Assembly (NCBI GenBank): GCA_013425375.1
Contig: JACCLH010000086.1
Location: forward strand, 1-40,487
Length of the DNA: 40,487 bases
DNA from: Candidatus Micrarchaeota archaeon
Lineage (GTDB): Archaea > Micrarchaeota > Micrarchaeia > Anstonellales > Bilamarchaeaceae
Direction of reading: 5' to 3'
Below, one piece after another: positions 9,078-34,600 of the stretch. The position numbers were made by a program, and so were the translations under genes. The first letter of the stretch is position 1. The number at the start of each line of letters is the position of its first letter. The notes beneath the pieces are model-generated. The model was not told where the DNA came from and searched no databases. It saw nothing but the letters and a program-made list of their open reading frames with translations.

Positions 9078-10472
9078 TCATGTGCCCTTCGCTATCTTCT
9101 CGTATTCCTCTGCCAGGCGTTTCGCTTCCCCTGCGTTCCTGGCTTCTGCGAAGATGCGCACGTAGGGCTCTGTGCCCGACGGCCTGCATATCACCCATGC
9201 ATCCTTGAGATTGATGCGCACGCCATCGACAGTCACGCAATCGAGTTTCTTGTTTTTGGCGTGCGCGAGCACGCGCTCCACTATCTCCTTCTTGTTTTTC
9301 TCGTCAGCCTCTATCTTCAGCTTGACATTGGAATATCGCGGGACCTCTTCCAGCCATCTGCTCAATGGCTTCTCGCATAATGCTTCGGCGAGCTTCGCCG
9401 CTGTCATGAACCCGTCCTTGGCCATGCTCAGCTCAGGCCATATCACTCCGCCGACCTCCTCCCCTCCCATGGCTGCTGATTTCTTGGCCATGGAGCGGAC
9501 GGCGCCCCGTCCGCTGCTGTCAAGGATGCCCACCATCCTTGCCATCTCTTCGCAGAGGTAAGGCGCGCCTATCGCAGTGTATCTGATCCTGGCACCGTAT
9601 TTCGCAGCCACATCCTCAACCGCCTTGCTTGTTGCGACCGTGGTAACCACATCGCCCTTGAGCTTCTTGCCATCCGCTTTCCATATGATGGACAGCGCAT
9701 AGACCCTGTCCCCGATGACATAGCTGCCTTTCTCATCAACGAAAATCACCCGGTCTCCGTCGCCATCCCAGGCGATGCCTGCATCAGCGCCGCTTGATTT
9801 CACGAGCGCGATGAGCTCCTTGACATTCGCTTCTGTGGGCTCGGACGGCCTGCCAGGGAATCTTCCGTCAGGATGGGAATTCAGGCTGGTTATCTCGCAT
9901 CCCAATTCCTTGAGCAGCCTTGGCGCGATGAACGATGCGGCACCGTTGCCGCAGTCTATGACTATCTTGGGCTTCCTCTTCGCGATTCTCTCAACCTGAG
10001 CCAGTTTCTTAACTGCCTCGATATGCTCCACTGTCCCTGTCTCATATGTCCTTATCTTACCTACCTTGTCCCATCCTGCGAGCCCAGGCTTCTCCATCAG
10101 CCTCTCTATCTCCTCTCCCCGTTCCCGCGATAGTGCGATTCCCCTGCCATCCACAACTTTCAACGCGTTCCACTCAGGCGGGTTGTGCGATGCGCTTATT
10201 ATGATGCAGCCGTCAGCAGCCAGCCGCTTCACCATATATTCAGCTGTCGGCGAGCTGGCCATGCCTAGGTCTATCACCTCGCAGCCGACCGAGGCAAGAC
10301 CCGAAACCACGGCAGAACGCAAAACATCCCCGGTTAGCCTGCAGTCCCTTGCCACCACTATTTTTCCGCCCTTGAAATAGGTCCCTATGGCCTGCGACAG
10401 CCTGAGCGTCAGCTCTGGTGTCAGCTCATCGAACCTGCCCCTGACGCCGTTGGTCCCGAAATACTTCGCCAT
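9078..10472 (-). CDS. Phosphohexomutase (phosphoglucosamine mutase / phosphomannomutase family)
   Basis: From ATG 10472 the protein begins MAKYFGTNGVRG. It has the phosphoserine loop SASHNPPEWNALK, the metal loop AWDGDGDR and the sugar loop GGEEVGG. The 115-aa upstream extension in the track overlaps the trm56 gene and its promoter. Confidence 0.85.
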   Translation of the reverse strand: MAKYFGTNGVRGRFDELTPELTLRLSQAIGTYFKGGKIVVARDCRLTGDVLRSAVVSGLASVGCEVIDLGMASSPTAEYMVKRLAADGCIIISASHNPPEWNALKVVDGRGIALSRERGEEIERLMEKPGLAGWDKVGKIRTYETGTVEHIEAVKKLAQVERIAKRKPKIVIDCGNGAASFIAPRLLKELGCEITSLNSHPDGRFPGRPSEPTEANVKELIALVKSSGADAGIAWDGDGDRVIFVDEKGSYVIGDRVYALSIIWKADGKKLKGDVVTTVATSKAVEDVAAKYGARIRYTAIGAPYLCEEMARMVGILDSSGRGAVRSMAKKSAAMGGEEVGGVIWPELSMAKDGFMTAAKLAEALCEKPLSRWLEEVPRYSNVKLKIEADEKNKKEIVERVLAHAKNKKLDCVTVDGVRINLKDAWVICRPSGTEPYVRIFAEARNAGEAKRLAEEYEKIAKGT

Positions 10473-10496
10473 ACAGGTGAGAATGGGCTTCACATG

Positions 10497-10502
10497 TTTA
10501 AA
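10497..10502. promoter_or_regulatory. Palindromic TTTAAA box; candidate bidirectional TATA for the mutase and trm56 genes
   Basis: It lies 25 nt from ATG 10472 (minus strand) and 23 nt from ATG 10525 (plus strand). Both genes would be leaderless. Confidence 0.45.
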
Positions 10503-10524
10503 TTGGTTGCGATAAATCACCATC

Positions 10525-11052
10525 ATGCAGATAGAAGTTCTCAGGCTCGGCCACCGTCTTCCAAGGGACGAGCGCATAAGCACGCATGTCGCCTTGGTAG
10601 CGCGCGCTTTTGGCGCTTCGGCCATGGCATATACCGGCCAGCATGATGCGGGGCTGGAAGAGAGCATCAGGAGGATTTGTGGGAACTGGGGCGGAGAATT
10701 CCCCATAACATATGAGAAAAGCGTCACAGCTGTCATCAAAAAGCACAAACGTGACGGCTTCACAATAGTCCATCTCACAATGTACGGTCTTGCTCTCCCC
10801 GACGTGCTGCCGGCCATAAAGTCACGCGGGAAAATCCTGGTTGTGGTGGGTTCCGAGCAGGTCCCGCGCGAGATTTACGAGCTCGCTGATTTCAACGTCT
10901 CAATAACAAACCAGCCGCACAGCGAGGTGGCCGCCCTTGCGATGACCCTCGACCGTCTCATGGAGGGCAAGGAGCTCGAGCCGCACGATTTCGGCGGAAG
11001 GATAAGGATAGTGCCGTCAGCCAGGGGCAAGGACGTGGTGGAGACGCGCTGA
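10525..11052 (+). CDS. trm56: tRNA (cytidine56-2'-O)-methyltransferase aTrm56 (SPOUT family)
   Basis: 175 aa. VLRLGHRLPRDERISTHVALVARAFGA and the C-terminal NQPHSEVAALAMTLDRL match the archaeal Trm56 pattern. Confidence 0.8.
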   Translation: MQIEVLRLGHRLPRDERISTHVALVARAFGASAMAYTGQHDAGLEESIRRICGNWGGEFPITYEKSVTAVIKKHKRDGFTIVHLTMYGLALPDVLPAIKSRGKILVVVGSEQVPREIYELADFNVSITNQPHSEVAALAMTLDRLMEGKELEPHDFGGRIRIVPSARGKDVVETR

Positions 11053-11645: not shown

Positions 11646-14600
11646 CTAGAATTGGCCGCCTACGGAAACGCCGACCTCTACTGGCACTTTGCCTTCCTTG
11701 CCTATATACGGTTCTACCCTGGAAACGTCCTGCGCGTTTGACTGGTCAAGGCCAGCGCCAGTGATCGCGCGGCCCCTGCGGAAGTATGCCTTGATATAGT
11801 ATGACGGGCCGAGGCCGCCGCCATAGTCCGGGGTCCACTCCACGCCGACCGCGGTCTCGCCCACCAAAGTGCTGGTTTTTTTGCCTGTTGGCGCCACAGC
11901 TGTTGTTGTCTCTGAAGCCGGTGGTGTCGGCCTCCAGCCGGTCTCCGTGCCCCCTTCGACGTAGAAATGGACGCTGAGCTTGTCGCCTGCCACGAAATCC
12001 GCCTTGGCAACAGTGATGCCGTAGCCGACTGTGGTCCTGCTGATCTCGCTGATGTCGCAGCCGAGCGTCATGCACGCCTGCTTCAGCTCGTCCTTGTCTT
12101 CGAACACGCCACTGCTCGCCACGAATATCTTGTCCCCTTTCAAGAATATGTAGTGGGTAATCGCTTGGTTCATGGTGGATGTATTTATCAGATTTATGTT
12201 GTGGGAGAGCACCACCTTGTATTCATTCCACCTCAGGTCCCCGTACTGCTTTGTGCCGTAGAAAATGCCTCCGAGGAGCTCCTGCTTGTAGTCCTGGAAT
12301 ATGCTCGCCAGGTAGCCTGCGCTCCAGTTGTGCGAGAAGTCATGGTATTTGTAGGCACTGGTCTCAAGCGGCAGGGTGAGCGAGCCGAATGCCCGCTGGG
12401 CTGTTAACCACAGCCCCCTCCTGTCTCCTGAGAACGTGAACTTGTAATCTCCGCTCTCGGTTGCATCTATGTCCAGGGTGAAGACGTCCATGCCTATCAT
12501 ATGGTTGTTTGGGGGCCTCAGCCACTCCTGTAGGTCCTCCTCGTCGCCTACCTTCAGGGCGCCCCTTGCCGGAGCCCCCTCAGCACCGCCGCCGGCCCTC
12601 ACGGTTATCGGTGTGTGCAGCACATAGTATCGCTTGTGGGTGTCATTCTTGCCCTCTGTGGCCAGGTGCGTGCCAAGATACACGTCGTATCTCTCAGGCT
12701 GGTGGCCTTCCCTGGTGTCGGCATCCTTCACTGCCACCAGGACGTCCAGCAGGTTCCTCTCCATGAGAAGCCTGACCTCGGCGCCGGTGAGCTCGCTCTT
12801 CTTCCCGATACCTAACGGCATCGCGACCTCCTCCACTATATGCCTGGCCACGCTTTTCTCCTTGGCGGCCTCGGCTGTGAACTGCGCTACCATCTCGTTG
12901 TCAGGCAGGAGCATCCAGTCAAGGTCAGTGGTCATCTCCCTCACCGCCTCTATCATCTCAGCAGGGTATGCCAGCAGCAGCCGCTGCATGTCCGGCTCGC
13001 TCTTCTTTATCTCCAGGAACACATCCCTGAGCGCCACGGCAGGGTCCTTGGTGGTCCTCTCCTCCAGGATGTTCTTAATCCTGGTCACGCTTGGGTTGCC
13101 CTCGTCCAGTCTCTTGGCGAACTCCCGCTTTATCTCGCTCTCAGGTCTCACCATCCATCCGAACGTGTCACGGGCCTCTTCCACTGCCTTGACCAGGTCC
13201 TTGCCATACACATCCCGGAGCACCAGCGAGTCATATCCTATGCCGCCCATCTCGCGGTAGCAGCGGCGCACTGCGTCCAGCTTGCCCAGCCCCTGTGTGA
13301 GCACCGCCTCCTGCTCATAGCGCACCAGGCCGTGTAGCGGCCACCTCAGGCCACCACCGATGTCGATGTCAGTGTAGAATGTGTCTTTCCTCACGATGGG
13401 GTGGGTGTAATCCGTTCCTGTGGTCGCGCCATTGGCGTCCGCCTTCTCCCGCGCGACCAGCGCAGTGGGGAACATATAGGCATGGGCTGCCAGGTCCACG
13501 AACCCGATTGTGGGCTTGCCGAATATGTACACCGAATAGAGGCCGCCATAGTTTGCCTTGTCTGCCGCGCTGTACCTCCCTGAAGCTATGGTATAGAAGC
13601 TGTTCGCTTCGCCATTGTAGCCATAGCCCAGCGAAACCTTCCATACTGACTTGGCCAGCGACGCATTGAGGTTCTCCGAGAGCGCCTTCAGGATGGACGC
13701 CTCCTCGGTCGGGTTCGCCTGTATGTCAGCCATGGCGTCGTTTATCCTATTGTACATGCTGTCGAAGTTGGGCGCCCTGCTGCCTCCGACGAGAATGTTG
13801 TGCCTCTGGGCCCAGTACATGAACAGCAGGGACGCATAGTTCGGATCCGGCCTGGACGGCGCGTTCTTCTTGTCAGTGATATAGTTGCCGGCAGCATCCT
13901 TGACCGTGTAGTCCTCCAGCTGGCTATAGAGGTAGCTGGCGGCTATCAGGTGGCCGGTCTCTTCGGCGCGGTTCTCAGACCATTGGTAGAACCGCATCAG
14001 GAAGTCCTTCATGCTGGAGTACATCTTGTCCGCATCCTCCATCGCTACCCTGGCCTGGCGCAGGAGGTCCACCTCTGTGCGCGCTACGGTGATGCCGTAG
14101 GCGTCCGTTCTGTAAGCTGTTATCGGGGCCTCTTTCCTGAACCTTCCGGCCACGCTCTGCGGCCAGCCCTTGAGCGTCTTTGTGCCTTCGCCTACATAGC
14201 CCCACCCGGCCCGGAATTCCCATGTGTTCTCCAGCGGCTTCAGGGCAAGGGTCTGCCTGATGTACTGCACGTTGGCCTCTGCGAACGTGGTGCCCTTCAT
14301 CTTCGCCTCATATTCGCCTGCCCTGGGCATGGCCTCCAGCTTCCTGCCTTGTGCATCGTAATATCTCATATCCGCGGTCTGGACGCCGTTGAATAAGAGC
14401 ACGTGGACGTCCCTCTGGCTCTGGTCGTCCCGTATGCGCGTGAAAGCTGAGCCAATGGCCTCCTCCTGGAACACAGGATCCATCGTGCTCATGTTCCTGG
14501 TGAGCTGGCCCACGCCCAGCGCGGAGAAATTGTCGCCCTCGCCGGTCGGTATGGTGAATCCCACTGCCATGCCGCTGAAGCCGCCCTCTGCTTCTTTTGA

Positions 14601-17600
14601 GGTGAACTGCTTCCTGCCTATCATCTTGGCAGAAGCGAGCCAGTAGTCCTCATCCCCGCCGCCATAGGTGTAGTTCAGGAGCTTGGCCCTGGTGTCGTAG
14701 CCATAGGCGACCTGCTCCCAGCTGCCGTCCGGCTTGAACAGTATCAGCCTTGTCTTGACGCGGCCCTCGCCTTCCTGGATGGGCTTCGCCTTAGTGCCCG
14801 CTGCTGGCGGCACTTGCGGCGGCAGGCCTGGCAGCTCCGGAATGTACGTTCCTGAGAAGAAAAACAGCATGTCAATGCCTTTTGTCTTGGCGAGCCTGGA
14901 GCATGTTTCCATCATGCCCTTGAAGCTGCTCTGCGACTCATATGACTTCTCCACCAACGCGCCGGTCTCGCCCACCTGCGGCACTGTGGTCTCTGCCCAC
15001 GCGCCGGTCATCTGAAGGGTGCCTGAATGCAGCCCTCCCTGTTCCTCTGGCGGCAAGCCCTCGGGCTTCAGGGAATTCACCACGCTCTCGCGCATCGCCT
15101 TGCCTGCCTTCTTGGCATCCACTATCGTGACCCCGATGATTTTACCATCTTCGTCCTTGGCTATCTGCATCCCTGTGTTCGCTGCATAGGCAGCGGTGTC
15201 GGTGACGCTCGCGATCTCAGTGTATATCAGCTGGCGCAGGGAGTCTGCCATCTTGGCCTCATCATTGGCATAAACGCTGTCCATGGCCTGCTGGGCCAGC
15301 TTGCCGTCCTCCTTGGTGTCCTTCCTCACCTCGGCGACCGTGCTGTCCAGCAATGCGCTGAATCCACCATGCTCTTCATAGAACGCCTTCGCCTCTTCCT
15401 GGAGCTGGGGCGCCTTCCTTTTTTCCTCTTCCAGTTTCTTCTTCTCCTGCTCCTTCCAGCCCTGGCTGCTCGGCAGGTATGTGATGATCGGGCCCACCAT
15501 GGGGTAGGGCACGCCGCCTGCGGCCGCCGTCACGTCCACTCCCTGCGTCACCTGGCCGCTCGTGCTTTCGCCTTCCCTGCCGGTGCCTATCTTGGTATCG
15601 AGCATCTCCCATTTCGCTTCGCCGGTTCCGCCTCCTGTGGGTGTCTGCAGGCCGCCCATGGCGCCGGTGCCGCCCTTTTTGGTGGTGGATGTCTCTGCGC
15701 CTTCATATCCGTAATAGCCCGCCGCATGTCCGTATCCGCTCAACAGATAGTCTGAGTACTCGGTAGGTATGGGCGGGAACATATGGCTGAGCATTCTCAG
15801 GTAGCTGGACATGCCCATGCCGCCTATCTTGAACTCGACCGGCACCCCGAGGTTGAGCATCAGGGCCGTTTCAGGCAGGAGCTGGTACTTCATCCTCGCG
15901 AACTGCCGCGTGGCGTCTGAATCCACAAGGAACCCTCCAAGGCGGAGCTGAGCCCCGACCGGCGCAATGCCGTGCGGCACAGGCACCTCGGGCCTCAGCG
16001 GCTGTTCGTAGAGCCCAGGTATCTGGTCCAGTTCCTGGCCCCAGTAAATCCCTTTTGTGGAGTGGAAGAGCGGGTTCTCCTGGCCCCAGTTGAGGGCGGT
16101 CCGCTCGGCCATCCTCCTCTCCTCATCCTCCAGGTTGTGGTGGTCGAATGTGCTCACGCGCTTCAGGAAATCGCTCTCTATGCTGGCGAACACTTCCAGG
16201 AAATACCTGCGCCTGTGCGCGATGCTGTAGGATGTCATCGCTGCTTCCTGCTGGTAGAGCCTGGAGACCGTGGTCCTGAACTGCTGTAGTCCGGCTATGA
16301 GGATCTCCTCTGTCTGGGCGCCCTGGACCATCGCTGGCAGGGCCTGGAGCAGGAAGGGCCCGATGAGGTAGGTGTCGCGGTCGGACAATGTGAGTATGGT
16401 GTCCATGAGCGCGTCCACCGCCTTGCTGCCGAACGCGGTCGGCCCGCCTATCTCGTTGATGGCCAGGCCTATGTAGAAGGCATCTATCACCGAGAGCCGC
16501 GCCTTGAGGGCGTCCAGTTTCTCGTCGCTGAGGTCATCTGCGGTTTCAGGGTGGAAGTTCCTGTCCTGCCTGTCCTGCCGGTATCTCTTCTCCAGCTCTG
16601 TGTAACCGCCCTGGCAGCGGCTGATGAACGCCTGGCCGGATGGACTTTGTAGGAATCCTGCGAGCATGTCTGCGGTGAACCTGTTCTCTTTTATGGCTCT
16701 TGCCTTGGCCTCCGGCAGCATGATCGCGCCGGATGATATCTCCATTATCTTCTGGCCGAGCAGCTGGAGGTTGAGGTACTGGTTGAACAGGAAGTCGTTG
16801 CTGCCGAACTGCTCGCGGTAGAAGTTCACAGCCCTGGCGAAATCAGCGCCCACCCTCTCCGGAGGCGAATACAGGGAGAGCGCCTCTCCTACCATGCCAT
16901 AGACGCGCGGTATCATTTCCTGCACATGGAGGAGGTTCTTCATGAAGTTCGTCCTTCCGACCATGGGGCCGCTCTCGAACGCGCTCTGCAGGGCCTCAAG
17001 GACGGCAGGATCCAGGGAGGCGAGGTCCTTGGGCGAGGCGTCCAGCCTCTCAAGGAACGCGAACTTGCTTAGGTTGTCCTTCACATAGTCCACAAGCCGC
17101 TCTCCGTACATCCTCTTCTGCTGGAAAAAGTACAGCTCGTACATCTCCTTGACGCCCTGTTCGGCTGCCTTGGCCGGCTTTGATTTGATGAGGCGGTATA
17201 TGCTCGTGAGCGAGCGGAAGAGCTCCTCGTTCTGCTTGCGGTAGGCGCGCATGAGGGACTTCACGCTCTGCGAATAGGCAGCGGGATACGCCTGGAATAT
17301 CCTGGCCCTGGCAATCTCATCCACGCTCTGCAGCTCGGCAAGGCCTGCGGTCGGGCTGTTCATGGCCCCCAGCTTGCCCTTCTGGTCCTCCACAACCTTC
17401 ACGAACCTCTCGCCGAACAGCTTCACCATCGCATTGCGGTTCTCGGTTTCGGTCGGGCTCACGATGGCCAGGTAGCACCGCTTCACTATGGCTGCGAAAA
17501 GCTCGTTCTCGCCGAGGGCGAGGTCATCTATGCCGGCGCCTTTCTCAAGCAGCTTGAGGTGCTTGGCCTGCGCCTCCAGTTCGGTCACGAACTGCGGGCC

Positions 17601-20480
17601 ATACATCTCCATCAGCGTTGCCCGGTCCTGCCATCCTGTGCCGCTCACGAGCGAGTTGTAGGCGCCTCCGAGCGCCTTGAAATAAGCCGGCTCGTCGACT
17701 CCGATGATGAACTGGAACAATCCGGGGTTCGCATGCCTGGTGACCGCGGCGATGACATCTCCGAGCACCCTCCCCTTTTCAGGGTTCTTGGTGGAGAGGG
17801 TCGTGTAGTCGCCAACGAGATCGTTGAGATCCCGGCGCAGCTTGGCCAGCTGCTCGCGCATGAGCGATGATTCCAGCATCGGCGCGTTCTGGAGGTCCTT
17901 CCCGGTCTCTGCCAGGTGTATCATGCTGAAGGCAATCCTCACGGCCAGCCGCAGCTGCTCAGGCCGTATGATGCTGCCGCTCGCAGGGTCTATCAGGACC
18001 CTCTGCCGCTCGACCAGCCGGTTGAGCTGGGCAGAATCCATGGTGGATTCGGCTTCGGTCAGGATGGTGTCGCTTTCGCGCCTCCACTCGCGTATCCACT
18101 CGCTCATCATGGGCCGGACCGGCTCCATCACGCGGTCGGAGAGCTGGCGTTCCACCCCGCTTATGAAGCTGTCTATGCTTCCGTGCCTGGAGACTATCTC
18201 ATTCCTGAGCTGCTCTGCCAGGCCTGCCTTCATGCCCGGCCGTTTAGTTGATTCAGAATCAGCTATCGGTTTGTTGAACGCGTCACCGTAGGCGTCCCTG
18301 ACGTCCTGCTGGGCCAGCCCTCCCCTCTCGCCTACCGCACGCCTTGTCACTGCGATGGCGCGGAGGAACTGGGATGGTATTATGGGATATGTGTTGGCGA
18401 GCAGCTTCTGGGTGTAATCATCTTTCTTTTCCCTAAGGTCCTTCTCTATGCTGGCGACACTTCCTGAGAGCCATCCCAGGGCCGCCCTGTTCCCTTCCAC
18501 ATAGGACACCAGCGTCTTGCCATAGCTCCTTTCAAGCCGCGCGCGGTCAGGGGCGGCCTTGCCTGTCTCGCCATATATGTCCTTGAGCGCATAGGCGAGC
18601 GTGGTCTCGCTGTATCCTGCCGAGGTGTTCAGCTGGTCCATGAACCTGCTTCCCATGTTGGCGTTCATCTGCTGCCCTATCTGCACCATCGGCCTGAGCA
18701 GCCATTGCATGCTGTCCAGGTTATCCTTCACAGCCTTCACGAGGTCCTTGCCGTACTTGCTCTCTGCCTGGCCGACTGCCTGCCTAACTGCCTTGACCTT
18801 CTGGTATGCCTTGGAAACCGACTCACAGACATCCCTGCTCCTTAGGTCATACTTGGACGCGAGCGCCACTGCGAGCGGGTCTGTCCTTCCCCTGCGCCGT
18901 ATCTCGGCCTGTATCTGCTGCGGGGTGTTGTCCAGCCAGGACAGCTGTTCAAGGTTCTTGCCGATCGTGTCAAGGAGGTCCGGGTCTATGGTGTGCTGGG
19001 CTATCCTCTCCTGCGAGACCGCGGCATAGGCCTCTGCCACGGCGCTGCCTGCCGAAACCCCGGCCGGGAGCTTCAGTGCCGCTGCCTTGAGCGCCTTGGC
19101 GCCTGCGTCATTCATCCTGGCCCGGTTCTCCATCTCGTCGTCGATTTCGCGCGGGTCGCGCACGAGCCAGGCAAGGTCGGCGATGTTGGAGCTCACCAGC
19201 TGGACCAGCCTGGTTCCGTATTCCACCCTCAGCCGCTCCATGTCCGGGCTGCCCATGGCCAGCTCGGCATATATGTCCCTCACCGCTATGGACAGGATGC
19301 TCCTCTCGAACACCTTGTATATCTGCGAGTATAGCCTGCCTGTCTTCATCTCCTGGGCATAGAGCGCGGTGAATGCGCCCCAGAATTCCTCGTTGTGCTG
19401 GACTAGGGGCATCTGCACGACTCCGTCCACCACCTCGGCCAGCTGGCCGTTGAGTATGGCGTTGAACGCATTGAGCGCGATGAGGTCGCCGTTCTCGCCC
19501 ACCTGCCTCATGAATTCCATTGCCCTGGCGGCCATGCCATGGGCGACCAGCTTGAGGAGCGGGTCCACGACATCTGTGCCCTCGTCCTTCCTCAGCCGCT
19601 CCACGCTTTCAACGTTGCCGGATGCTGCCGACTGGTACACTGTGGCGACCATGTCCGTGAATCTGGCTGGCTTCATCTCCCCCTCGCGTTTCGCGGCATA
19701 GGCCTTGATGATGGCCGTGAGCTTCGGGTCAGGGTATATCCTCTCCAGGAACTGCTTCTCAAACTCCTGCAGGAAGGCCGCGGACGGGTTCGCGTCGAAT
19801 ATGGCCCTGAACGTGGTCTTGTCTCCCGGGTCACCTGTGAGCATGAATTCGTGCAATGCCGTGATGGCCATCCGCGCCTGCTGCTCAGGCCTCCGGCTCG
19901 CGAGTTCTGCGGTCAGTTTCTTGCCGTATCTCTCTGCTATGTCAGGGACAGCCTTCCGCTCCTGCTCTTTCATGAGTTCCTGTCTGGCCGCGTCCTCATT
20001 GGACATTCCGGCCCGCACGTCTGCCCTCACCCTGCCTATCGCTGTGTCTGCCTTCACGGCCTTTGCCTTATCCATGTTCTTTACGAACGCGGCCACTTCG
20101 CTGTCGCTGACAGCTATGGCGTTGAGCTCGGAGCGGATGTTATGCACCCTGGTTATGAAGTCTACCTTGACCTCAGGCACCATGATGCCGATATCATCGT
20201 TATACGCCTCCAGGAGCGGGGCGACCTTACTATCGCTTTTCAGCTTGTCCCACTCGTTGCGGAGCGTGCCCATGAACAGCTGATTCTGGTTGAGTGCCTT
20301 CTCCTTGCCATCCTGCGGGTCCCTGGCATTTGCGTTGTATATCTTCCAGAAGTCGGCCCATCTGGCCTCATTGGCGTCGACTATGTAAGCGCGATACGCC
20401 TGGGCCGCCTGAACAGCCATGCCTTTGATCCGCGAAGCTTCCAGCGCCTCTGTACCTATCTTTTTGACGGGCTCTGCCAT
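11646..20480 (-). CDS. Giant protein E (about 2944 aa), unknown function: helical repeat-rich N-terminal half, shared module, beta-rich C-terminal part
   Basis: An uninterrupted ORF. The start is set at ATG 20480 because TTTAAATA lies 21-28 nt upstream, giving leaderless geometry. The track start at 20753 adds 91 aa. I spotted no hydrophobic helices or catalytic motifs by eye. Confidence 0.8.
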   Translation of the reverse strand: MAEPVKKIGTEALEASRIKGMAVQAAQAYRAYIVDANEARWADFWKIYNANARDPQDGKEKALNQNQLFMGTLRNEWDKLKSDSKVAPLLEAYNDDIGIMVPEVKVDFITRVHNIRSELNAIAVSDSEVAAFVKNMDKAKAVKADTAIGRVRADVRAGMSNEDAARQELMKEQERKAVPDIAERYGKKLTAELASRRPEQQARMAITALHEFMLTGDPGDKTTFRAIFDANPSAAFLQEFEKQFLERIYPDPKLTAIIKAYAAKREGEMKPARFTDMVATVYQSAASGNVESVERLRKDEGTDVVDPLLKLVAHGMAARAMEFMRQVGENGDLIALNAFNAILNGQLAEVVDGVVQMPLVQHNEEFWGAFTALYAQEMKTGRLYSQIYKVFERSILSIAVRDIYAELAMGSPDMERLRVEYGTRLVQLVSSNIADLAWLVRDPREIDDEMENRARMNDAGAKALKAAALKLPAGVSAGSAVAEAYAAVSQERIAQHTIDPDLLDTIGKNLEQLSWLDNTPQQIQAEIRRRGRTDPLAVALASKYDLRSRDVCESVSKAYQKVKAVRQAVGQAESKYGKDLVKAVKDNLDSMQWLLRPMVQIGQQMNANMGSRFMDQLNTSAGYSETTLAYALKDIYGETGKAAPDRARLERSYGKTLVSYVEGNRAALGWLSGSVASIEKDLREKKDDYTQKLLANTYPIIPSQFLRAIAVTRRAVGERGGLAQQDVRDAYGDAFNKPIADSESTKRPGMKAGLAEQLRNEIVSRHGSIDSFISGVERQLSDRVMEPVRPMMSEWIREWRRESDTILTEAESTMDSAQLNRLVERQRVLIDPASGSIIRPEQLRLAVRIAFSMIHLAETGKDLQNAPMLESSLMREQLAKLRRDLNDLVGDYTTLSTKNPEKGRVLGDVIAAVTRHANPGLFQFIIGVDEPAYFKALGGAYNSLVSGTGWQDRATLMEMYGPQFVTELEAQAKHLKLLEKGAGIDDLALGENELFAAIVKRCYLAIVSPTETENRNAMVKLFGERFVKVVEDQKGKLGAMNSPTAGLAELQSVDEIARARIFQAYPAAYSQSVKSLMRAYRKQNEELFRSLTSIYRLIKSKPAKAAEQGVKEMYELYFFQQKRMYGERLVDYVKDNLSKFAFLERLDASPKDLASLDPAVLEALQSAFESGPMVGRTNFMKNLLHVQEMIPRVYGMVGEALSLYSPPERVGADFARAVNFYREQFGSNDFLFNQYLNLQLLGQKIMEISSGAIMLPEAKARAIKENRFTADMLAGFLQSPSGQAFISRCQGGYTELEKRYRQDRQDRNFHPETADDLSDEKLDALKARLSVIDAFYIGLAINEIGGPTAFGSKAVDALMDTILTLSDRDTYLIGPFLLQALPAMVQGAQTEEILIAGLQQFRTTVSRLYQQEAAMTSYSIAHRRRYFLEVFASIESDFLKRVSTFDHHNLEDEERRMAERTALNWGQENPLFHSTKGIYWGQELDQIPGLYEQPLRPEVPVPHGIAPVGAQLRLGGFLVDSDATRQFARMKYQLLPETALMLNLGVPVEFKIGGMGMSSYLRMLSHMFPPIPTEYSDYLLSGYGHAAGYYGYEGAETSTTKKGGTGAMGGLQTPTGGGTGEAKWEMLDTKIGTGREGESTSGQVTQGVDVTAAAGGVPYPMVGPIITYLPSSQGWKEQEKKKLEEEKRKAPQLQEEAKAFYEEHGGFSALLDSTVAEVRKDTKEDGKLAQQAMDSVYANDEAKMADSLRQLIYTEIASVTDTAAYAANTGMQIAKDEDGKIIGVTIVDAKKAGKAMRESVVNSLKPEGLPPEEQGGLHSGTLQMTGAWAETTVPQVGETGALVEKSYESQSSFKGMMETCSRLAKTKGIDMLFFFSGTYIPELPGLPPQVPPAAGTKAKPIQEGEGRVKTRLILFKPDGSWEQVAYGYDTRAKLLNYTYGGGDEDYWLASAKMIGRKQFTSKEAEGGFSGMAVGFTIPTGEGDNFSALGVGQLTRNMSTMDPVFQEEAIGSAFTRIRDDQSQRDVHVLLFNGVQTADMRYYDAQGRKLEAMPRAGEYEAKMKGTTFAEANVQYIRQTLALKPLENTWEFRAGWGYVGEGTKTLKGWPQSVAGRFRKEAPITAYRTDAYGITVARTEVDLLRQARVAMEDADKMYSSMKDFLMRFYQWSENRAEETGHLIAASYLYSQLEDYTVKDAAGNYITDKKNAPSRPDPNYASLLFMYWAQRHNILVGGSRAPNFDSMYNRINDAMADIQANPTEEASILKALSENLNASLAKSVWKVSLGYGYNGEANSFYTIASGRYSAADKANYGGLYSVYIFGKPTIGFVDLAAHAYMFPTALVAREKADANGATTGTDYTHPIVRKDTFYTDIDIGGGLRWPLHGLVRYEQEAVLTQGLGKLDAVRRCYREMGGIGYDSLVLRDVYGKDLVKAVEEARDTFGWMVRPESEIKREFAKRLDEGNPSVTRIKNILEERTTKDPAVALRDVFLEIKKSEPDMQRLLLAYPAEMIEAVREMTTDLDWMLLPDNEMVAQFTAEAAKEKSVARHIVEEVAMPLGIGKKSELTGAEVRLLMERNLLDVLVAVKDADTREGHQPERYDVYLGTHLATEGKNDTHKRYYVLHTPITVRAGGGAEGAPARGALKVGDEEDLQEWLRPPNNHMIGMDVFTLDIDATESGDYKFTFSGDRRGLWLTAQRAFGSLTLPLETSAYKYHDFSHNWSAGYLASIFQDYKQELLGGIFYGTKQYGDLRWNEYKVVLSHNINLINTSTMNQAITHYIFLKGDKIFVASSGVFEDKDELKQACMTLGCDISEISRTTVGYGITVAKADFVAGDKLSVHFYVEGGTETGWRPTPPASETTTAVAPTGKKTSTLVGETAVGVEWTPDYGGGLGPSYYIKAYFRRGRAITGAGLDQSNAQDVSRVEPYIGKEGKVPVEVGVSVGGQF

Positions 20481-20500
20481 GACAGTACTTACTCCGAGGA

Positions 20501-20508
20501 TATTTAAA
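20501..20508 (-). promoter_or_regulatory. TTTAAATA TATA-like box of giant gene E
   Basis: The minus strand reads cgaaTTTAAATAtcctcggagtaagtactgtcATG. This spacing matches the other first genes in the window. Confidence 0.55.
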
Positions 20509-20808
20509 TTCGTTCCGCCGGGGAGGGCTGAGGCGCCCACGTTGACCGCAAGGAACCAGGAAAGGAACCTGGACGCCCTTGAACCTGATCTCGCCACTTG
20601 CGTCAGACAGCCTGTCACACAAGCCGCGTCAAAGAACGGCAGAAGACGCGGCTCCGGTGGCGAAATCAGGTTTGAACGTGCCCGGGTATCTTTCAATGGT
20701 CCGGACTCGGCATGATCCGCGCTCTGCCTGTGGAGCAATCTCGGGCCTGACATGAATGGGAACCTTCCAGAATTTGGCTGTCCTGGTGATATTGTGTCAG
20801 GAAAGATT

Positions 20809-20844: not shown

Positions 20845-22812
20845 TTACAGCGGGATACGGATGGTACGGCCCCTGTCGCTTTCCTTCTCCTCTGGCGGCT
20901 TCGCCTGCTGTGCCGGCTGGCCCTGGACAGGCTTCGCGACCTTGACGCCCAGCCTGTCTGCCCATGCGCCTACCGGCTCGTTCGGATTGGCCATCCTCCG
21001 TGCAACGAGCGCGACCGCAGCGATGGTCCGCATGTCTGGCATCCCATCCCTTATGAGCCTGTCGGTCTTGAGGCCAAGGACAGTGCCGGTGAGCAGCTTC
21101 ACGTCGTCCTTGAGCAAGGCGAAGCGGGAATCGTCCTTCCTTGCCGTCATGTCCATGACGAACTCCTGCACAGCTTCTGCCACGTATGTCCTCTGATCCT
21201 GTGTTGAATCCGCGCTGAGCCTGTAGGCGTCATACCCTATATTGGAGTAGTTCTTCCTTCCCCTCACGAACGAGAGGAAGCCATTGTTCTTGTGGAGATA
21301 TTCGTTGAACATCTTGTCGAACGCATCCTGTATATCCGTCCTTCCCAGCTCCTTCAGGGCCGCCTGCAGGTCTGGGTACTTCGTCTTCTTGGGATTCTCC
21401 GGATCCTTGGGTAGGTTGCGTATGATATCTACGACATCCTCGGGCTTCCCTGAGGATGCGGCACCAACTATCCTGGCCGGCAGGTTCTTCCAGTTCTCCC
21501 CTGCGAATTTCTCAAGCTCAGTTGGTTCGCGCTTCGCTGGCTCTTCCACTACCGTAGCCTCTTCGGCCGCTTCGGGCGCCTTCCACACGCTGAGCGGTGG
21601 CTGCTCCGCCACCATCTTCTCCAGCGCCGCCTCTATCTGCTCCTCTTTTTTCCCTTTCTTCGTCAGGCTGCTCCTCAGGTCCTCAATGTCTTTCCATATA
21701 TAACCGCGCCTGATATAGAGTGCTGCTGCGATTATGGTCTCGCTGTCCATCTGCTCTGGCTCTTGGACATAGGGGCGAACGAAACCCGCCCTCTCCTTCT
21801 CGGTCACATTAGGATATGTCCTGGTGCCCTCCACTTTCTCAAGGCGCTCTTTTATCCCGGTCTGCATTATCTCTTCACGGAAATCCGTGTTGCCCGGGGG
21901 AATGATTTTCAGCAGGTAGTAACGTATGAACATGTTTGCCGCGCGGATGGCGTCTGCGTCGGCATATCCGGTCAGCATGCCCTTGGATTTGTTGAGCGCC
22001 AGCTGCAATACGCCGAACTCCGGGAACATGGCCTTGCCGACCTCGCCCGAGGCCTCGGATTTCAGGAAGCTCTGGAACTTCGGTATCTGGTAAAGGGCGT
22101 TGAAGACCGCTATGGTGGCGTCCCGCTGCCCTGTCACGCGCTCTGTGCCGCGCTGTTTCTCTGCAGAGAGGAACTTGTCCACCTGAGCAGAGTTCCGGTA
22201 GAGGTTGGTTGCTGCCAGGCCGGGCGGGTCTTTCTGCTCGTCCTTCCGCGCGTTCTTGAGCATCTTCTCTATCCAGTCTATCGTCACCATTACCTGGGGA
22301 GTCTTGTGCCTGGCCTGCAGCTTGGCCTTATTCTCGGTTTCCTTGGCCTTGCCGATTTCTTCACGTGCTTCAGCTATCCTCTTCAGCGCTTCCGCTTTCA
22401 CTGCCTGCTGTCTCTCTTCCTCCTTCTGTTTCTTCTCCTTGGCCGTCTCAACACTCTCAGCTTTCTTGGGCGCCTCTGGTCTCTTCTCCTTGGGCAGAGC
22501 AGGCCTGGGTTCTGCTTTCTTCTGCGGCGCCGGCGCCTCCTCTGCTTTCCTCGCGCCGACAGGATTGATTATTCCTTTTATCCTGCTCGCCTCGGAGCTG
22601 GCCTTAATCGCCTTCAGCTCCTTGACATGGTCGCCCTGGCTGCCCTCGGCCATCTCGTACACCTGCCTGACATTTTTGATGGCCTCCTTGACCTTGGCCT
22701 CTATCTCCTCAGGCTTCGCAGGGTCTATAGTGACTCCTGCGGCCGCGGTAGTGCTGTCATTGAACTTTATGCTCAGGCTGTTGTTGGATTTGGAATAAAT
22801 CACTGAAGCCAT
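20845..22812 (-). CDS. Protein D (655 aa), soluble-looking, with a K/E/P-rich segment; unknown function
   Basis: ATG 22812 lies 4 nt after the stop of C, with AGGAGAG inside the end of C, so the two are coupled. No hydrophobic helices are seen. Residues about 85-165 are K/E/P/A low-complexity. Confidence 0.75.
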   Translation of the reverse strand: MASVIYSKSNNSLSIKFNDSTTAAAGVTIDPAKPEEIEAKVKEAIKNVRQVYEMAEGSQGDHVKELKAIKASSEASRIKGIINPVGARKAEEAPAPQKKAEPRPALPKEKRPEAPKKAESVETAKEKKQKEEERQQAVKAEALKRIAEAREEIGKAKETENKAKLQARHKTPQVMVTIDWIEKMLKNARKDEQKDPPGLAATNLYRNSAQVDKFLSAEKQRGTERVTGQRDATIAVFNALYQIPKFQSFLKSEASGEVGKAMFPEFGVLQLALNKSKGMLTGYADADAIRAANMFIRYYLLKIIPPGNTDFREEIMQTGIKERLEKVEGTRTYPNVTEKERAGFVRPYVQEPEQMDSETIIAAALYIRRGYIWKDIEDLRSSLTKKGKKEEQIEAALEKMVAEQPPLSVWKAPEAAEEATVVEEPAKREPTELEKFAGENWKNLPARIVGAASSGKPEDVVDIIRNLPKDPENPKKTKYPDLQAALKELGRTDIQDAFDKMFNEYLHKNNGFLSFVRGRKNYSNIGYDAYRLSADSTQDQRTYVAEAVQEFVMDMTARKDDSRFALLKDDVKLLTGTVLGLKTDRLIRDGMPDMRTIAAVALVARRMANPNEPVGAWADRLGVKVAKPVQGQPAQQAKPPEEKESDRGRTIRIPL

Positions 22813-22816
22813 AACT

Positions 22817-25800
22817 TCACTCTCCTTTCTTCATCTGCCTCTTGAGGATGTCAAGACCCATCGTCATCAGGTACGGATTCGCCTTGTGGCTGTCTGTCAC
22901 CATCACCACGTCAACCGCGCCGTTCTTATCTGTCACTGCGATGCCGTTCTCGGCGAGTGTTTTCCTGAGTTTAGGGTCGCCCACCTGCCTCTTGATCTCA
23001 GCGTACACATCAGCCTCGAACCTGGCCCTGTCATCTGGGAGAGGATAGAGCGTCTTCATCATGCCACGTTCAGGGCTCTTCTCCTTCATGGCGTAATGGT
23101 TTGTGACCACGATTTGGGCCTGCACCCTCATGACAGTGTCTGCCATCCCGGAAAGTACGACCGGCGGGGCCTCCCCGGGCTTCGCAACCCTGTTGTAGCC
23201 AGGCAGCCTCACGGGTTTCGGTTTGAGCTCCCCAAGGACGATTTCCTCCATTCCCTTCTCCTTCTCCAGGGGTTTCTCCTCCCCCTTGCGCCTGGCTGAC
23301 GGGGTGGGGATGCTTATGTCCCACCATGCCTCCTCGTTCTTGTAATAATCCGCCTGTCCATCAAGGAACTTCTCAATCTTTGCCGGGTCTTTAGGAACGA
23401 CCGTTCCCTGTTCCTGCAGGCTCTTGAGGATGTTGACCACATTGCCTTTGATGGCCCGCTTGTTGTCCACCAGCCATTTGATCAAACCGCTTTCCGCGTT
23501 CCTGTTCCTGTCCCTGGTTGTCCTTTGCACAGCGAATGCGACCAGCCTTTCGTTTCCTGGCTTGAGCAGCTCCGGGTCAATCTCTGCGAGCGCAGCAGGC
23601 CCTACGCGTCCCTGCTTCATGGCGACTGCCACAATGTCTACTTCCGTGCCCTCTGCGGTGAGCGCACCGAGCGTTATAAGCTCTGCTTTGGCTGCTGCCC
23701 TCGCTGCTGCTGTTTGCGCCACATCTGCCATAGTGGCCCTGAGATTCGACACATTTGTTATGAACTTCGCAAGGTCCTCTGGTTTGCCGTATACTGTCTC
23801 TCCGCCGGATATCATTCCGTCCTCGCCTATGGTTATCTTATTGAGAGCGAACGAATTGAACGCGGCCAGATTCTCGGTGTGCCACCGCTGGTTGTACAGG
23901 ATGGCCTTCACATCCTGTTTTATTCCAGGATTCGTAATCGCGTTCTGGTCAAGCATACCCAGGAACGAGTTGTCTTTTATGCCTTCTCTGCCGCTGACCT
24001 CTATGTAAAAGCCTGCATTTTTCAGGTGCTCCCGCAGCACGACATCAATGGTTTTGGTTGCGGTCGCCTGCTGCCTGAGACCTTCAATGACTGGCTTGCC
24101 ATCTGGCCCGGTCTTAGAGAGGTTTGCCATCACATCTCCTACAAACACGGATGGTATGTTGCCTGCGCGTACCGAGTCGAACATGAACCAGTAAACAGCG
24201 GGATACCAGCGCAGCAGGCTCTCGGCCTTCATGCTTTCCTGCTTGAGCTGTCCACCGAGCACTTCTTGTCTGCCTATGGTTCCTGTGTCTGCGAGGAATG
24301 TCTCAGCTGCCACGTCCATGTATGTCAGGACAAGGCCGCGTTCCATCCAGTTCTTCCTTCTAAGGTTAGCCATGTCTGTTATGTCAAGCTGGTTTTTGTT
24401 CTCACCTGAGAGGAGCCCGTATACATTTCCGAGTTCGATATGCAAGGGTTCCAGTTTTTCCCGGAGCTTTTTCTCAATATCAATAACGCCGCTAATGTCA
24501 TTAGCCTTGGTTTTCGTTTTCCTATCTACCAGCAGCTCGTTTATGCCATCGAGCGCATCTGACATGGCATGGCCGTCAGTGAGTATCTTATCTATCTTGC
24601 GTATGTCATAGAGCACGCCCCTATCCAATAGGGCCCTTACCTCCGTCCAGTCATCCGGCCTGCGTTCGTCTCCCTGCGGGAACGTGTTCACTATATACCT
24701 GAAGAGCGCGGCCCCATCGTTCTTTCTTGGCTTCTCAGCGCCCAGCGCTTCCTTGAATTCCTTGACAAGCTCGTTCTCAGCATCGGCCATGATTTTTTCT
24801 ATCTCTGCCTGCTGCTTGAGGGTGATTGACCCGCCTATTCTCTCTGCCATCTCCTTTTTCAGGTCAGTGAAAATCTGCCTGATGTTTTTCTTCTGCTTGT
24901 CGCTGTCTTTCTCAGCCACCTGCCCCATCAGCCTCTTCTCCGCATTTTCCAGGGCAGTGACCACATCCTGCATCCGGTTGCCTTTCAGCGTCTTGCCTAT
25001 CCCATCAAGTATGTCATCCTTGACATCCACAATCGTTTCATGCACTGTTGTCCTGAGCTCTGCCTGCGCAGAGAGCCCTGTCTTGGTTATCCACCTGGCG
25101 TTCTCATCGCTGCATGCGATGCCGTACCTCTCTTTGCACATCTTTCTTCCTTCTTCCACTGTGGCAGCGCCTGTGAGCGTACGGTAAAACCCGATGGCGT
25201 ACGGACTGCCCCAATGATTCAGCGCCCACCATGCCGCTACCTGCGGCACGATGTACATCCAATTGCTTGCAGCCGCTCTTATCCTTCCGCCTGGTATGGC
25301 GCCTGCAATCCCTTTCAACCATGTTCGGCCGCCCCAATTGGTGAACGGTTCCACATTATTGAGGAATCCGCCTACCACTTTAGCCGCATCCCATATGGTG
25401 TAAAGTATGGGGTGTGCCTGCCTTGCCAGCGTGCTGCCGGTTTCATCTACTGCGCCAAGCACCTGGTTTGCCCTTACTTTGACAGCCCCTAAGATAGAGA
25501 GTTCCTCCATGAGGTCGGGCATCATCTTAGCCGTATTCCACATGGCTTCCATGCCCGGCCGCAGACTGCTATCCATCACTCCAAGCGCCGCATCCACAGT
25601 GCCGACGTTCATAGCTTCTTTGAATGCCTTCCCAGTGCCCCTCCCGTGGACATTTTCCACTGCTCTTGCCACTTCATTGCTTTTCAGGGCATTAAGCATT
25701 GTTGTTTCCAAATTGCCGTCAGGGGCTACATGTCTGATAATGCTTTGCCTCACAGCGTCGACAATCGGATTGCCTGAAGTGGGCAGATTGTTTATGAGCG

Positions 25801-31162: not shown

Positions 31163-31172
31163 CCATCCCACC

Positions 31173-31502: not shown

Positions 31503-31533
31503 GCGAGCACCTGTACAGTTATACCTGTGCAAC

Positions 31534-31541
31534 TTTATAAA
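31534..31541 (-). promoter_or_regulatory. TTTATAAA TATA-like box upstream of gene B
   Basis: A palindromic AT box lies 32 nt upstream of ATG 31502, within the 126-nt A-B gap. Confidence 0.45.
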
Positions 31542-31580
31542 TATGACCGGGGTTCCATCGAGGTGCACCCTTATAACCGG

Positions 31581-31628: not shown

Positions 31629-34600
31629 TCAGTTCTTGGCCGGAGGTGAGGCTGGTGCTGTGGTCTCCGCAGGTTTCAGCTTCTTGAGCAGATTCAGCAT
31701 GCGCGAGCGCAGGGTCATCCTGGCCTTGTCTGCGTCCTTGACCTCAGCTGCGGTCACCGCGTTTCCTGTGTCCTTGGTGACCAGTATGCCGCTGTCAGTG
31801 GCATAGGTGACGGGGTCCTTCACAGATGCGAAGCCCACATATATCCACTGCTTGAGTGATTCGTCAATGGCCGCAGTCGCGCCTCCGAAGGCGCTTCCCA
31901 TGACCTCCGCGGCGAGCTTGCCGTCTGCGCGCTTGTCCTCGTGCAGCTGCTGTATGGAGAGTTCCACACCCTTGGTGAAGAGCTCCTGGGACGTAGAGGT
32001 ATAGAACCTCTTGGCTTCCTCGCTCAGCTTGGGGATATCCATCCTGCCTTCCTGGGGCGCGGCGTCTGTAGTTATATACCCCTTGCCCACTGCATACTGC
32101 ACCAGGTATCCTGGCGGATCGGTGAACGGGTCGTAGTCTTCGACCTTGCCCTTGGCTGCCTTGTGCTCTGCCAGCTTCTGGATGAATTCCCTGGAACTGG
32201 AGACGCTTGCGTAGTACTTCACGCCGCTCTTCTCGAACTTGCCCAGGAGCCCCACGATATCCTCGTTGTCCTTGGCCGTGAGCACGTCAAGCGCCTGGAC
32301 AGTAGGCAGGTCCAATGGCTTGCTCACATCTATGCTGAGCAGCCGCTTCATCTTGTTGGCTATCTGGTAGCGCCTGAATTCCGGTTCGGTGTTCTCCACC
32401 CAGCCGCTCTTCTCTGCGGCTGCCTTGGTGGTGTCGAACGCCGTGTTGAGCACATCTTCAGGGACATAGGCTATGGCAAGGTTCACTCCAGGTATGGCCT
32501 TCTTCACCTCTGCCATCCAATTCCCGACGAACGCGTCCCTCTTGTCCTCCTTCACCCAGCGCTCGGCCCTCCCCTTCATGCCGCACATGTTGACGAACGT
32601 GCTTATCCTGCCGCTTCCCTGGTTGTGCAGGAACGCGACGTTGCTGCGGTTGGTAGTCTTGATGTTGTCCACCAGGTCCTTCTCCGCTGCCGTTATGAGG
32701 AATCCCTGCGTGGTCCAGTTCATCATGTTGGTCGGATGGGTCAGGAACTTGTGATCCATCACCATCTCGGTATCGCCGACCTTCCCGAGCGCATCAGCGA
32801 AAGCCTTGTTGGCCGGCTTCGCGAGGAAGGCGGCATCCACCTTCGTGTTGCTCTTCTTCAGCTCGGCGAGCTTCGTCATGAAGGCCTCCTTGTCCTTTTT
32901 CTCCTCTTTCTTATCTTTCTTCTCCAGCGCCTGGTCCACAATGCTCTCCACGAACGCTGCGTTCTTCGGGTCTGTGAGGAACCAGTAGTTCACCTTCTTG
33001 GCCTTGCCTTCCAGGGCCATGAGGGTATCCACGAACCTGTCGCTCTCATACCTGTTCAGGACGCGGCCGTCATCTACCGGGTAGGTGCTCAGGTCTATGG
33101 TGCAGCATACGCCCATCTTCGGGTCCCATCCTTCCTTTCCGATGGTTGCCGGCTCGTAATCTGCTATCGCTCTCCAGCTCGCCTCTATGTCAGGTACCTC
33201 GGCCTTCGCATCCTTGTATCTCATGAAGTTGAGCCCGTCAGGGTCCTGGCAGCTCTTCGGTATGGCTTCTTTGGGGTTTGTGCAGTTCTCAGGCCCTGCG
33301 CCGATGTCCTTCACGCTCACGAACCTCCTCATGGAAGTGCGTTCCTGCAAGAACTTCAGCACGTCCGGGTGGTTCTCCAGCCAGTTGAGCCTTTCAGTCG
33401 GCCCGTCACACTGGACGATTCCGCAAAGCCGGTCAGAGACATTGGCCGCGAGCCAGTTGGTTCTCTCGTACTCTTCGCCAGGCAGCGCGTTGCCGACTCC
33501 GTACTGGCTCCTGTAAACATCATATCCTCGCTCAGGCAGCTTCCATGCGATGTCGTAGCTGTCATCTCTGTACGCTCTGGTGTCCCTCTGCGATTCCACA
33601 GGCAGGAACCAGGTCCATGGGTAGTACAGGTGCGAACTCGCGTCATTTATGTAGAGCGGGCCATTCACCAGGCCAGTAGCCCTGATGCCTGCGCTGGGCC
33701 ACGACCACGGCTTGTACCAGTGGCCTTCGCCGCTGCCAACCACGAGGCTGAACGCCGCGGGCAATATGATATACGACTTCAGGCCTGCCCAGAAGACTCC
33801 GCTCACGATGCGTGGTATCGTGGAAACGTGCAGGATGTCATTGCCATCCGCATCCTGGTCAGGCCAGGTTATTTTCTGGAACCAGTTCCTGTACAGCAGG
33901 TCGCCGCCGGTGTATCTCTTCTCCGACTTGTTATAATCACCGAAAAACTGTTTGCCTGGAAGTATGTGAAGGAACACCCGCCGCCCCGTATTAATATATA
34001 CATTCGGATCGAATACATTCTGAAGTATCCAGTTTATCGCGGACTTGAACGAGCCTTCGTGCTTGGTGACCCCATGCTCAGGGTCAGTGGAAATCTCCTC
34101 GAACATCGACCTCGCCAGCATCCTCTGCCCATCGCTTATGCCTAGGGGGTTGCTCTCCTTGCGCTCCTTCGCCTTCTTGAGCGAGAGCTCCACAACCTTC
34201 CTGATGGGCTGGCCATGCGTTTTCCTTATATCGTCTATCTCCCTGGAGATGTATTCTGTCTGCTCGGTCAGCGCTTTTGTCGCGTGGTCGTGCGCACCAC
34301 TGGCATCCTTGACTGCTTTGGGCTTAATCGTGGCTGCGAACTCAAGGTTGCCCAGTGTGGTCGCCATCCATGCGAGCCGTTCCCTTGTCTCAGCCGGTAT
34401 GGGTGCGGCCGCCAGCTCCTGCCTGAACGCCTCCATCTTCTCCTCAAACGCATCTATCCTCTTGCCGAAAACATCGTCATCCGCGACCTTCGCCTGTTTG
34501 CCTGCAACGCCCTCGCTCATCCTCTTCATGAGAAGAAGGCGATCGAAGCTGGCCCTTTCTGTCTTCAGCTCTTCGGCCTGCTTGAGCAGGTCCATGAGCG

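Follow-up and report, generated by a model that had tools for sequence, protein, structure and literature searches.

We describe a protein module of about 115–125 amino acids (aa) that is shared by giant proteins encoded in a single operon of a Candidatus Micrarchaeota archaeon (assembly GCA_013425375.1, contig JACCLH010000086.1). The window analyzed here is the 40,487-nucleotide (nt) stretch of that contig, in which five closely packed genes, A, B, C, D and E, are all encoded on the minus strand. The module is a new, autonomously folding domain family whose existence is solid; in the window it is complete in A and E and survives as a degenerate copy at the end of C. From its placement and history we tentatively infer that it serves as a docking or assembly tag.

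DPANN genomes are tiny, yet about 24 kb is given here to an operon whose giant proteins are unannotated. It is kept next to ftsY across Micrarchaeia-like genomes, and full-text literature searches (Micrarchaeota or DPANN giant proteins, Bilamarchaeum and Anstonellales) returned no description of either the operon or the domain. A shared, tethered domain offers a first handle on how these giant proteins might cooperate. The preliminary description of the sequence, which proposed the module as a common docking, assembly or sorting domain, did not state the strand; plus-strand translations of A to E are nonsense, and all coordinates given below for these genes refer to the minus strand.

Proteins E and A share a complete module

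In E the module spans aa 1781–1899 (15057..15413), and in A it spans aa 1335–1458 (31665..32036), where it is C-terminal and is followed by an 11-residue P/A-rich tail. The two copies align almost without gaps, as had been proposed: BLASTP aligned 113 aa at 34% identity, with 2 gap positions (E=1e-20), and the Smith-Waterman score of 173 compares with 30.7±5.6 in 2000 shuffles (z=25.5). These values refute chance or a compositional artefact for the E-A pair. The peptide originally read from E corresponds to aa 1786–1899, or 15057–15398, within 7 nt of the interval 15050–15405 first given for it, the peptide read from A is exactly the last 132 aa of that protein, and the one read from C is likewise its end. 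The spacing between the FY and DGKLA motifs, 23 aa in E and 25 aa in A, was correct, but that between DGKLA and (D/E)SL(R/K)Q is 16 aa in both proteins and not 24.

Scored against a hidden Markov model (HMM) of the family, the E copy reached 135 bits (HMM positions 1–117) and the A copy 139 bits (HMM positions 1–123). The family is marked by the motifs P-x-L-[ST]-x-[ED]-A-x-x-F-[YF], D-G-x-[LIM] and [IV]-[YF], a G-[IL]-x-[VI] hairpin and a final amphipathic helix. Both copies follow the profile over about 115 positions and carry these motifs, while the copy in C retains the second half only. A tblastn search of the whole window with either module found no copies beyond those in E and A.

The C-terminus of C carries a degenerate copy

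The last 112 aa of C (22820..23155) hold the degenerate module, of which the well-supported part is the hairpin and last helix at aa 2729–2778 (22838–22987). BLASTP did not link the C-terminus of C to A or E. By Smith-Waterman alignment, A and C scored 54 against 24.8±4.4 for shuffled sequences (z=6.6, with none of 2000 shuffles reaching the score) over 50 columns, in the register that had been proposed: V(K/G)DP...GI.VT.D..GAV...V.D..KA...L..LK. The alignment of E with C was weak (z=2.3). An HMM of the close A-type modules gave 7.0 bits against the last 150 aa of C, a score equaled by 7 of 3000 shuffles (p about 0.002), and hhalign returned P=0.0027 over 70 columns; the 11-sequence family HMM missed this remnant. 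Both the E-A and the A-C alignments thus stand above their shuffled controls; the case for C is the weaker of the two but agrees with the claim that C carries the second half of the module.

The orthologues of C in four other genomes end in a full module, with the pattern L-[ST]-x-EA-x-x-FY ... DG ... EIYR-x-LTS ... GITVSG-x-G ... V ... L-x-N-x-I. When the profile of these modules was compared with the A/E module profile, hhalign gave a probability of 96.8% (E=2.6e-10, 109 columns). Because the C protein of the window is colinear with these orthologues up to its last residue, we read its end as a module with a degenerate first half, in which the EAxxFY motif is lost and the DGxL loop deleted. 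This decay explains why only a second half had been recognized in C.

The module is predicted to adopt a compact, unmatched fold

AlphaFold2, run with the E copy as target and a five-sequence alignment, returned a confident model (predicted local distance difference test (pLDDT) 91.9, predicted template-modeling score (pTM) 0.83). The predicted secondary structure (H7-15, H17-32, H36-47, H53-69, H74-81, E83-87, E93-98, H101-116) describes a compact fold of five helices, a beta-hairpin and a final helix. When a natural tandem was modeled, both modules took this same fold.

Searches for a known relative of the model were negative. Foldseek with the pLDDT-92 model gave a best E of 0.67 and a template-modeling (TM) score of at most 0.30 in the PDB; in BFVD the best E was 0.11, with TM no higher than 0.32 for alignments of more than 100 columns. 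A search of PDB sequences with the module profile reached a best E of 0.25. Matches to the module were absent from NCBIfam, and a Pfam scan of 11 isolated modules yielded only DUF2283, in one of the 11, on the hairpin, at 17.5 bits against a cut-off of 23. Accordingly, no annotated domain in Pfam or NCBIfam reached its curated threshold. An alignment of 55 modules contains no conserved Cys, His or Ser column, nor a Lys column, and the conserved positions are mostly hydrophobic, Gly or otherwise of a fold type (F-Y, I-Y, G-I-x-V, G-x-G). Since the conserved positions are of this type and no Cys, His or Ser column is present, the module is argued to have a binding rather than a catalytic role.

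The module lies at the C-terminus of nearly all its bearers

To place the module beyond the window, we ran an exhaustive hmmsearch of 1.84 billion representative proteins with a threshold of E<=1e-3. Of 41 matches, 40 are true bearers. The remaining one, P0025, is a 769-aa protein of 12 nearly identical 57-aa repeats (…RWQRSAGAAAGGRLYVRATVVFSDKEQAQKRVERCLQHLHETTSCESRIA…) that matched profile positions 8–53 twelve times, and was rejected as a repeat artefact. A word-indexed homologue search with a two-sequence module profile found nothing; the module was traceable only through whole-protein orthologues and the exhaustive HMM search.

It is very improbable that the module is a chance or compositional artefact or an already annotated common domain. 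The failure of BLASTP to connect C with A or E and the sub-threshold DUF2283 match could be taken in that sense. Against it stand the E-A statistics, the profile-profile E of 2.6e-10, forty specific matches among 1.84 billion proteins, a confidently predicted fold, and the lack of any curated family above threshold.

All true bearers are A-family proteins (1170–1770 aa, colinear with A), C-family or C-position proteins in syntenic loci (P0040, P0041, P0020, P0026, P0028 and P0038), or contig-edge fragments, and a genome holds only 2–3 such proteins. In 39 of the 40, the last module lies no more than 26 residues from the C-terminus, bearing out the extreme C-terminal placement first noticed in the window. 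A low-complexity linker precedes the module. In the A family this linker is rich in P/A/Q, in the C family it is charged or rich in R/E/Q, and in E it is Gly/Thr-rich with KEQEKKK. The position at the terminus behind a linker is true of A and C and not of E. The C-termini themselves are hydrophilic (A ends in ...KPAETTAPASPPAKN, C in ...LKRQMKKGE), and a hydropathy scan found no hydrophobic segment there. The hairpin-helix half of the module weakly resembles the N-terminus of D (HMM E about 3), a likeness that was rejected as not significant.

A conserved element at the extreme C-terminus of 39 of 40 bearers, common to non-homologous, cargo-like giant proteins of one locus, could be a sorting or export signal resembling that of the type IX secretion system (T9SS), with a dedicated machine delivering the giant proteins to the cell surface; A to E also lack an obvious N-terminal signal peptide. 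We nevertheless consider this explanation, which repeats the sorting role suggested at the outset, unlikely. None of the loci examined has a secretion-system gene linked to the cluster, and the tail lacks hydrophobic character. The internal copy of E, together with tandem copies elsewhere, would be atypical of a terminal signal, and the internal copy in particular is hard to reconcile with sorting. Additionally, the C copy in the window is half decayed in an otherwise intact protein, and the exhaustive search found only 2–3 bearers per genome.

The known signals of this kind resemble the module in being conserved, extreme C-terminal elements that mark a set of large proteins, as do the T9SS C-terminal domain and the PGF-CTERM/archaeosortase system. 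The T9SS domain (Por_Secre_tail, TIGR04183/PF18962), however, is an ~80–100-aa beta-sandwich found on Bacteroidota cargo, in dozens of proteins and with a linked secretion machine, whereas the module has six helices and one hairpin, no Pfam or NCBIfam match and no linked machinery, and occurs in an archaeal genome. PGF-CTERM is a short motif followed by a transmembrane helix and a basic tail, while the module is mostly helical and soluble, lacks a hydrophobic tail and can be internal.

The E copy is an old insertion in an inter-domain hinge

The copy in E lies 1136 residues from the C-terminus and is the sole non-terminal case among the 40 bearers. Compared with its orthologues, E carries an insertion at about aa 1762–1900 (15054..15470), in which the module is preceded by a charged lead-in (KEQEKKKLEEEKRK) and followed by the tail PEGLPPEE. 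In an alignment of four E orthologues this region is gapped in L002_E and L003_E and replaced by an unrelated insert in L001_E; over aa 1801–1900 identity is 4% and gaps make up 83%. A Gly/Thr-rich linker flanks the site on one side and the conserved C-terminal part of the protein on the other, so that the copy lies in a hinge between domains; the preliminary description had placed it at a putative switch from a helical to a beta-rich half of E.

The GC content at third codon positions is 0.76 in the insert and 0.78 in the whole of gene E, and at the nucleotide level the E and A copies share a single similar stretch of 34 nt (79% identity). The low nucleotide similarity and the gene-like third-position composition therefore indicate that the insertion is old and not foreign. 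Because the unrelated insert at the same site in the L001 orthologue (…VVRDIYRL…PNRARLERSYGREFVELIASNRQYLNWALA) resembles another copy of an ~40-aa motif that recurs in E (described below), the hinge looks like a hot spot for insertions.

The internal copy also bears on a further explanation, that the module is a C-terminal folding or oligomerization helper, similar to an intramolecular chaperone or a cap, with one per giant protein and no linking role. Its terminal place in long, probably fibrous or coiled-coil-rich proteins would suit such a helper, as would the coiled-coil proteins that are the only PDB matches of the A-family profile and the predicted ability of the domain to fold independently. 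We doubt this explanation, in that a copy in the middle of E cannot serve as a C-terminal cap, and the exchange between A and C described below is unexpected for a private helper. The module also lacks a conserved Ser/Lys or other catalytic pair for release, and has no match to Peptidase_S74 or a similar family. Peptidase_S74 (PF13884), the chaperone of phage tail spikes and fibres, is likewise a C-terminal domain common to different long structural proteins, with a known fold and an assembly role, but it cleaves itself through a Ser-Lys dyad that is missing from the module, which also has no Pfam or Foldseek match and one internal copy.

Copies are duplicated and exchanged within the operon

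The module occurs in tandem in P0006, P0008 and P0009 (on A) and in P0028 (at a C-type end), and it has undergone segmental duplication in P0011. In the locus L014, the module of A and the module just upstream of D are 52% identical and are reciprocal best matches among 55 modules, with a Smith-Waterman score of 302 for this A/C-position pair against 210–246 for the next. Similarly, the best match of the C module in L012 is the A module of its own genome (170 vs 160). In the window, the C remnant matches A-type modules best (scores of 55–54), including that of its own A and that of the closest homologue of A, ahead of C-type modules at 46 and 41.

Among close relatives, a neighbor-joining tree placed the A copy of the window with the tandem 'copy 1' (58% bootstrap), and the 'copy 2' modules group in a clade with 99% support. 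The E copy joins copy 2 at only 40% bootstrap. Strongly acidic modules, with net charges of -7 to -10, are the E copy and the second copies of P0006, P0008 and P0009. Net charge is close to neutral (-1 to +4) in the A copy of the window and in copy 1 of both L006 and P0008; copy 1 of P0009 is likewise near neutral, and that of P0006 stands at -6. These sequence properties hint that E may carry the equivalent of the second copy that A of the window lacks. Module duplication, exchange and relocation together make a compact case of domain shuffling inside one operon.

Between genomes the modules have diverged to 17–40% identity with the fold kept. This fast divergence, the tandem duplication and the tethered, terminal position could be expected of a distal ligand- or host-binding 'tip' held on a linker by surface-exposed giant proteins, and DPANN archaea live attached to hosts. 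That the module is such a tip of an episymbiotic archaeon nonetheless seems improbable to us, as does the accompanying proposal that its rapid lineage-specific divergence is an adaptation to the host surface. The domain is small and mostly helical, Foldseek searches of the PDB and BFVD returned no recognizable lectin, Ig or adhesin fold, and the likeness of A and C copies within a genome is explained equally well by docking. Surface exposure, moreover, is an assumption of this proposal.

The module may act as a docking or assembly tag

We favor, with a confidence that falls a little short of even, a role for the module as a tethered, operon-specific tag for protein-protein docking or assembly. 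Giant proteins A and C, and here also E, would use it to bind either each other or one common lineage-specific partner. With A and C taken as probably membrane-anchored, the operon products would thereby form one large assembly, following a dockerin-like logic with a fold unrelated to that of dockerin. A docking or assembly tag fits because the module is terminal and tethered, occurs in tandem, is exchanged between A and C, and has no conserved residues of a catalytic type. The same evidence would also be compatible with other roles for the module.

Dockerin, which is borne by cellulosomal enzymes and binds the cohesins of scaffoldins, is the nearest analogue in logic. Similar to the module, it is small and autonomous, usually C-terminal behind a linker, common to unrelated large proteins, sometimes internal or duplicated, and more alike within a genome than between genomes. 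By analogy, a common tag might bring different proteins into one assembly here as well. In contrast, dockerin is an ~70-aa duplicated Ca-binding F-hand (two repeats with D-x-D/N-x-D/N-G loops), while the module is 115–125 aa long with a single DG(K/R)L loop, a different order of secondary-structure elements and no Dockerin_1 Pfam match. The two have no kinship in sequence or fold. The bearers of the module are limited to two or three per genome, all from one operon, the host is archaeal rather than clostridial, and a cohesin-like receptor was not identified. Measured by family criteria (Pfam/NCBIfam, fold and motif), the identification of the module as dockerin, the T9SS domain, PGF-CTERM or Peptidase_S74 was rejected in each case.

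Docking domains of polyketide synthases (PKS) and non-ribosomal peptide synthetases (NRPS) are also terminal elements on the giant proteins of one operon, where they fix the association of subunits. Those of PKS are helices of 20–40 aa, and the C-terminal one pairs with an N-terminal partner on the next subunit. The module differs in that the same ~115-aa domain stands at the C-terminus of both proteins, and no complementary N-terminal element was found.

Several observations weigh against a docking or assembly role. In Bilamarchaeum-like genomes the C-type modules form a separate old clade that does not track the A copy, and exchange between A and C is for this reason recurrent but not universal. 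A comparison of net charge between A-type and C-type modules showed no systematic complementarity, and the model of the natural tandem (pTM 0.62) is ambiguous on packing between modules. The A and C copies may or may not lie on the same side of a membrane, as the topology is judged from a hydropathy heuristic. Additionally, the loss of half of the domain suggests that the C copy may be dispensable in the lineage of the window.

An extended form of the docking proposal, which we regard as fairly unlikely, makes the module a lineage-specific 'address tag' whose homotypic or heterotypic binding would couple A and C, and here E, into a very large machine of the DPANN cell envelope, possibly one that contacts a host. 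Repeated homogenization of the copies within a genome would keep the tag self-compatible, and the acidic 'second copy', in tandem on A in sister genomes, would have moved to the hinge of E here and rewired recruitment. Should the docking proposal be true, the operon would represent an archaeal system with a dockerin-like assembly logic and a new fold. The module defines a small construct for work on binding, structure and localization, and its profile finds the operon in metagenomes.

The operon and its surroundings

In DPANN archaea (Micrarchaeia and relatives), genes A to E make up a conserved operon with the order FtsY | A - B - C - D - E. The wider order conserved in relatives is (prefoldin) - FtsY - A - B - C - D - E - ... 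- Trm56/PGM, where PGM is phosphoglucomutase. The locus is chromosomal and syntenic, and is not a mobile element. Archaeal markers in the window include aTrm56, eIF6, L31e, S19e, prefoldin alpha, FtsY, geranylgeranyl reductase and ThyX. We recovered orthologues of E (P0002–P0004, 35–37% identity) and of A (P0006 and P0007). Named relatives with the locus are a Candidatus Bilamarchaeum metagenome-assembled genome (MAG; Micrarchaeia, Anstonellales) and the MAG 'Candidatus ainarchaeum sp. STA_81'; the B protein of the latter shares 77% identity with that of the window. The contigs of relatives are mostly too short to span A, C and E together. None of the five proteins, scanned in full, exceeded any curated Pfam or NCBIfam cut-off, and profile searches with A, C and E found no significant relative among PDB sequences.

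Gene A (31629–36038) encodes 1469 aa, and its family normally carries the module as the C-terminal domain. A hydropathy heuristic marked one moderately hydrophobic segment in A (aa ~735–770) and 3–4 Gly/Ala-rich hydrophobic segments in C (aa 1115–1260), with no convincing segment in D or E. Following the hydrophobic segment, the A family has a nearly invariant block (aa ~799–1000 of A in the window) with the motifs PWTW, DSYDIP..L..RG..YY...YGVG, L.WL...PDVLRFFQER and DG..LN. The block also contains paired cysteines (C...P..C and VCCTI), matches no known family, and may be the functional core of A. A family scan of 23 A-family proteins returned nothing except one coiled-coil match.

Gene B (31173–31568) is an open reading frame (ORF) of 131 aa, or about 109 aa from Met23, and encodes a small conserved protein between A and C. 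It is by far the best conserved protein of the operon (55–77% identity across genomes), with an invariant C-terminus, FVLICR[TM]YS, and no family match in Pfam or NCBIfam. Used as a search anchor, B added few loci: two from genomes and two from metagenomes. In loci L012 and L014, A is followed by the next gene with no B in between, and B is therefore not an obligatory partner of the module.

Gene C (22817–31171) encodes 2784 aa and gene D (20845–22812) encodes 655 aa. The D orthologues in L001–L003 and L005 (788–819 aa where complete) have a GDSL/SGNH-lipase domain. This domain is lacking in D of the window and of L014, where ~200 aa are deleted in the middle of the protein and both flanks are conserved.

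Gene E (11646–20753) is a 3035-aa ORF, for which the public call is 2944 aa from Met92 (start at 20480). The 91 codons upstream of the public start (MAEPVKKIG), at 20480–20753, are not conserved in the orthologues (61% gaps), and the shorter call is for that reason probably right. The recurring ~40-aa motif of E, [RK]D[IV][YF]...PD..RL...YG..LV..V......L.W[LM], occurs at aa 492–535, 724–765, 2513–2540 and 2576–2620 (about 19150–19280, 18460–18585, 13135–13217 and 12895–13028). At its C-terminus (11646–11680), E has a strand-like stretch with a terminal aromatic residue (…VSVGGQF), as do the L001–L003 orthologues (…GRVQW, …GTMQW). This type of terminus recalls the C-terminal signature of bacterial outer-membrane beta-barrels and is puzzling in an archaeon.

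Farther along the window, an ankyrin-repeat protein gene (8529–9071, plus strand) adjoins the PGM gene (9078–10817, minus strand), as in locus L001. The PGM ORF of the window, at 579 aa, is ~130 aa longer at the N-terminus than its orthologues (433–448 aa), probably because the listed start lies upstream of the true start codon.

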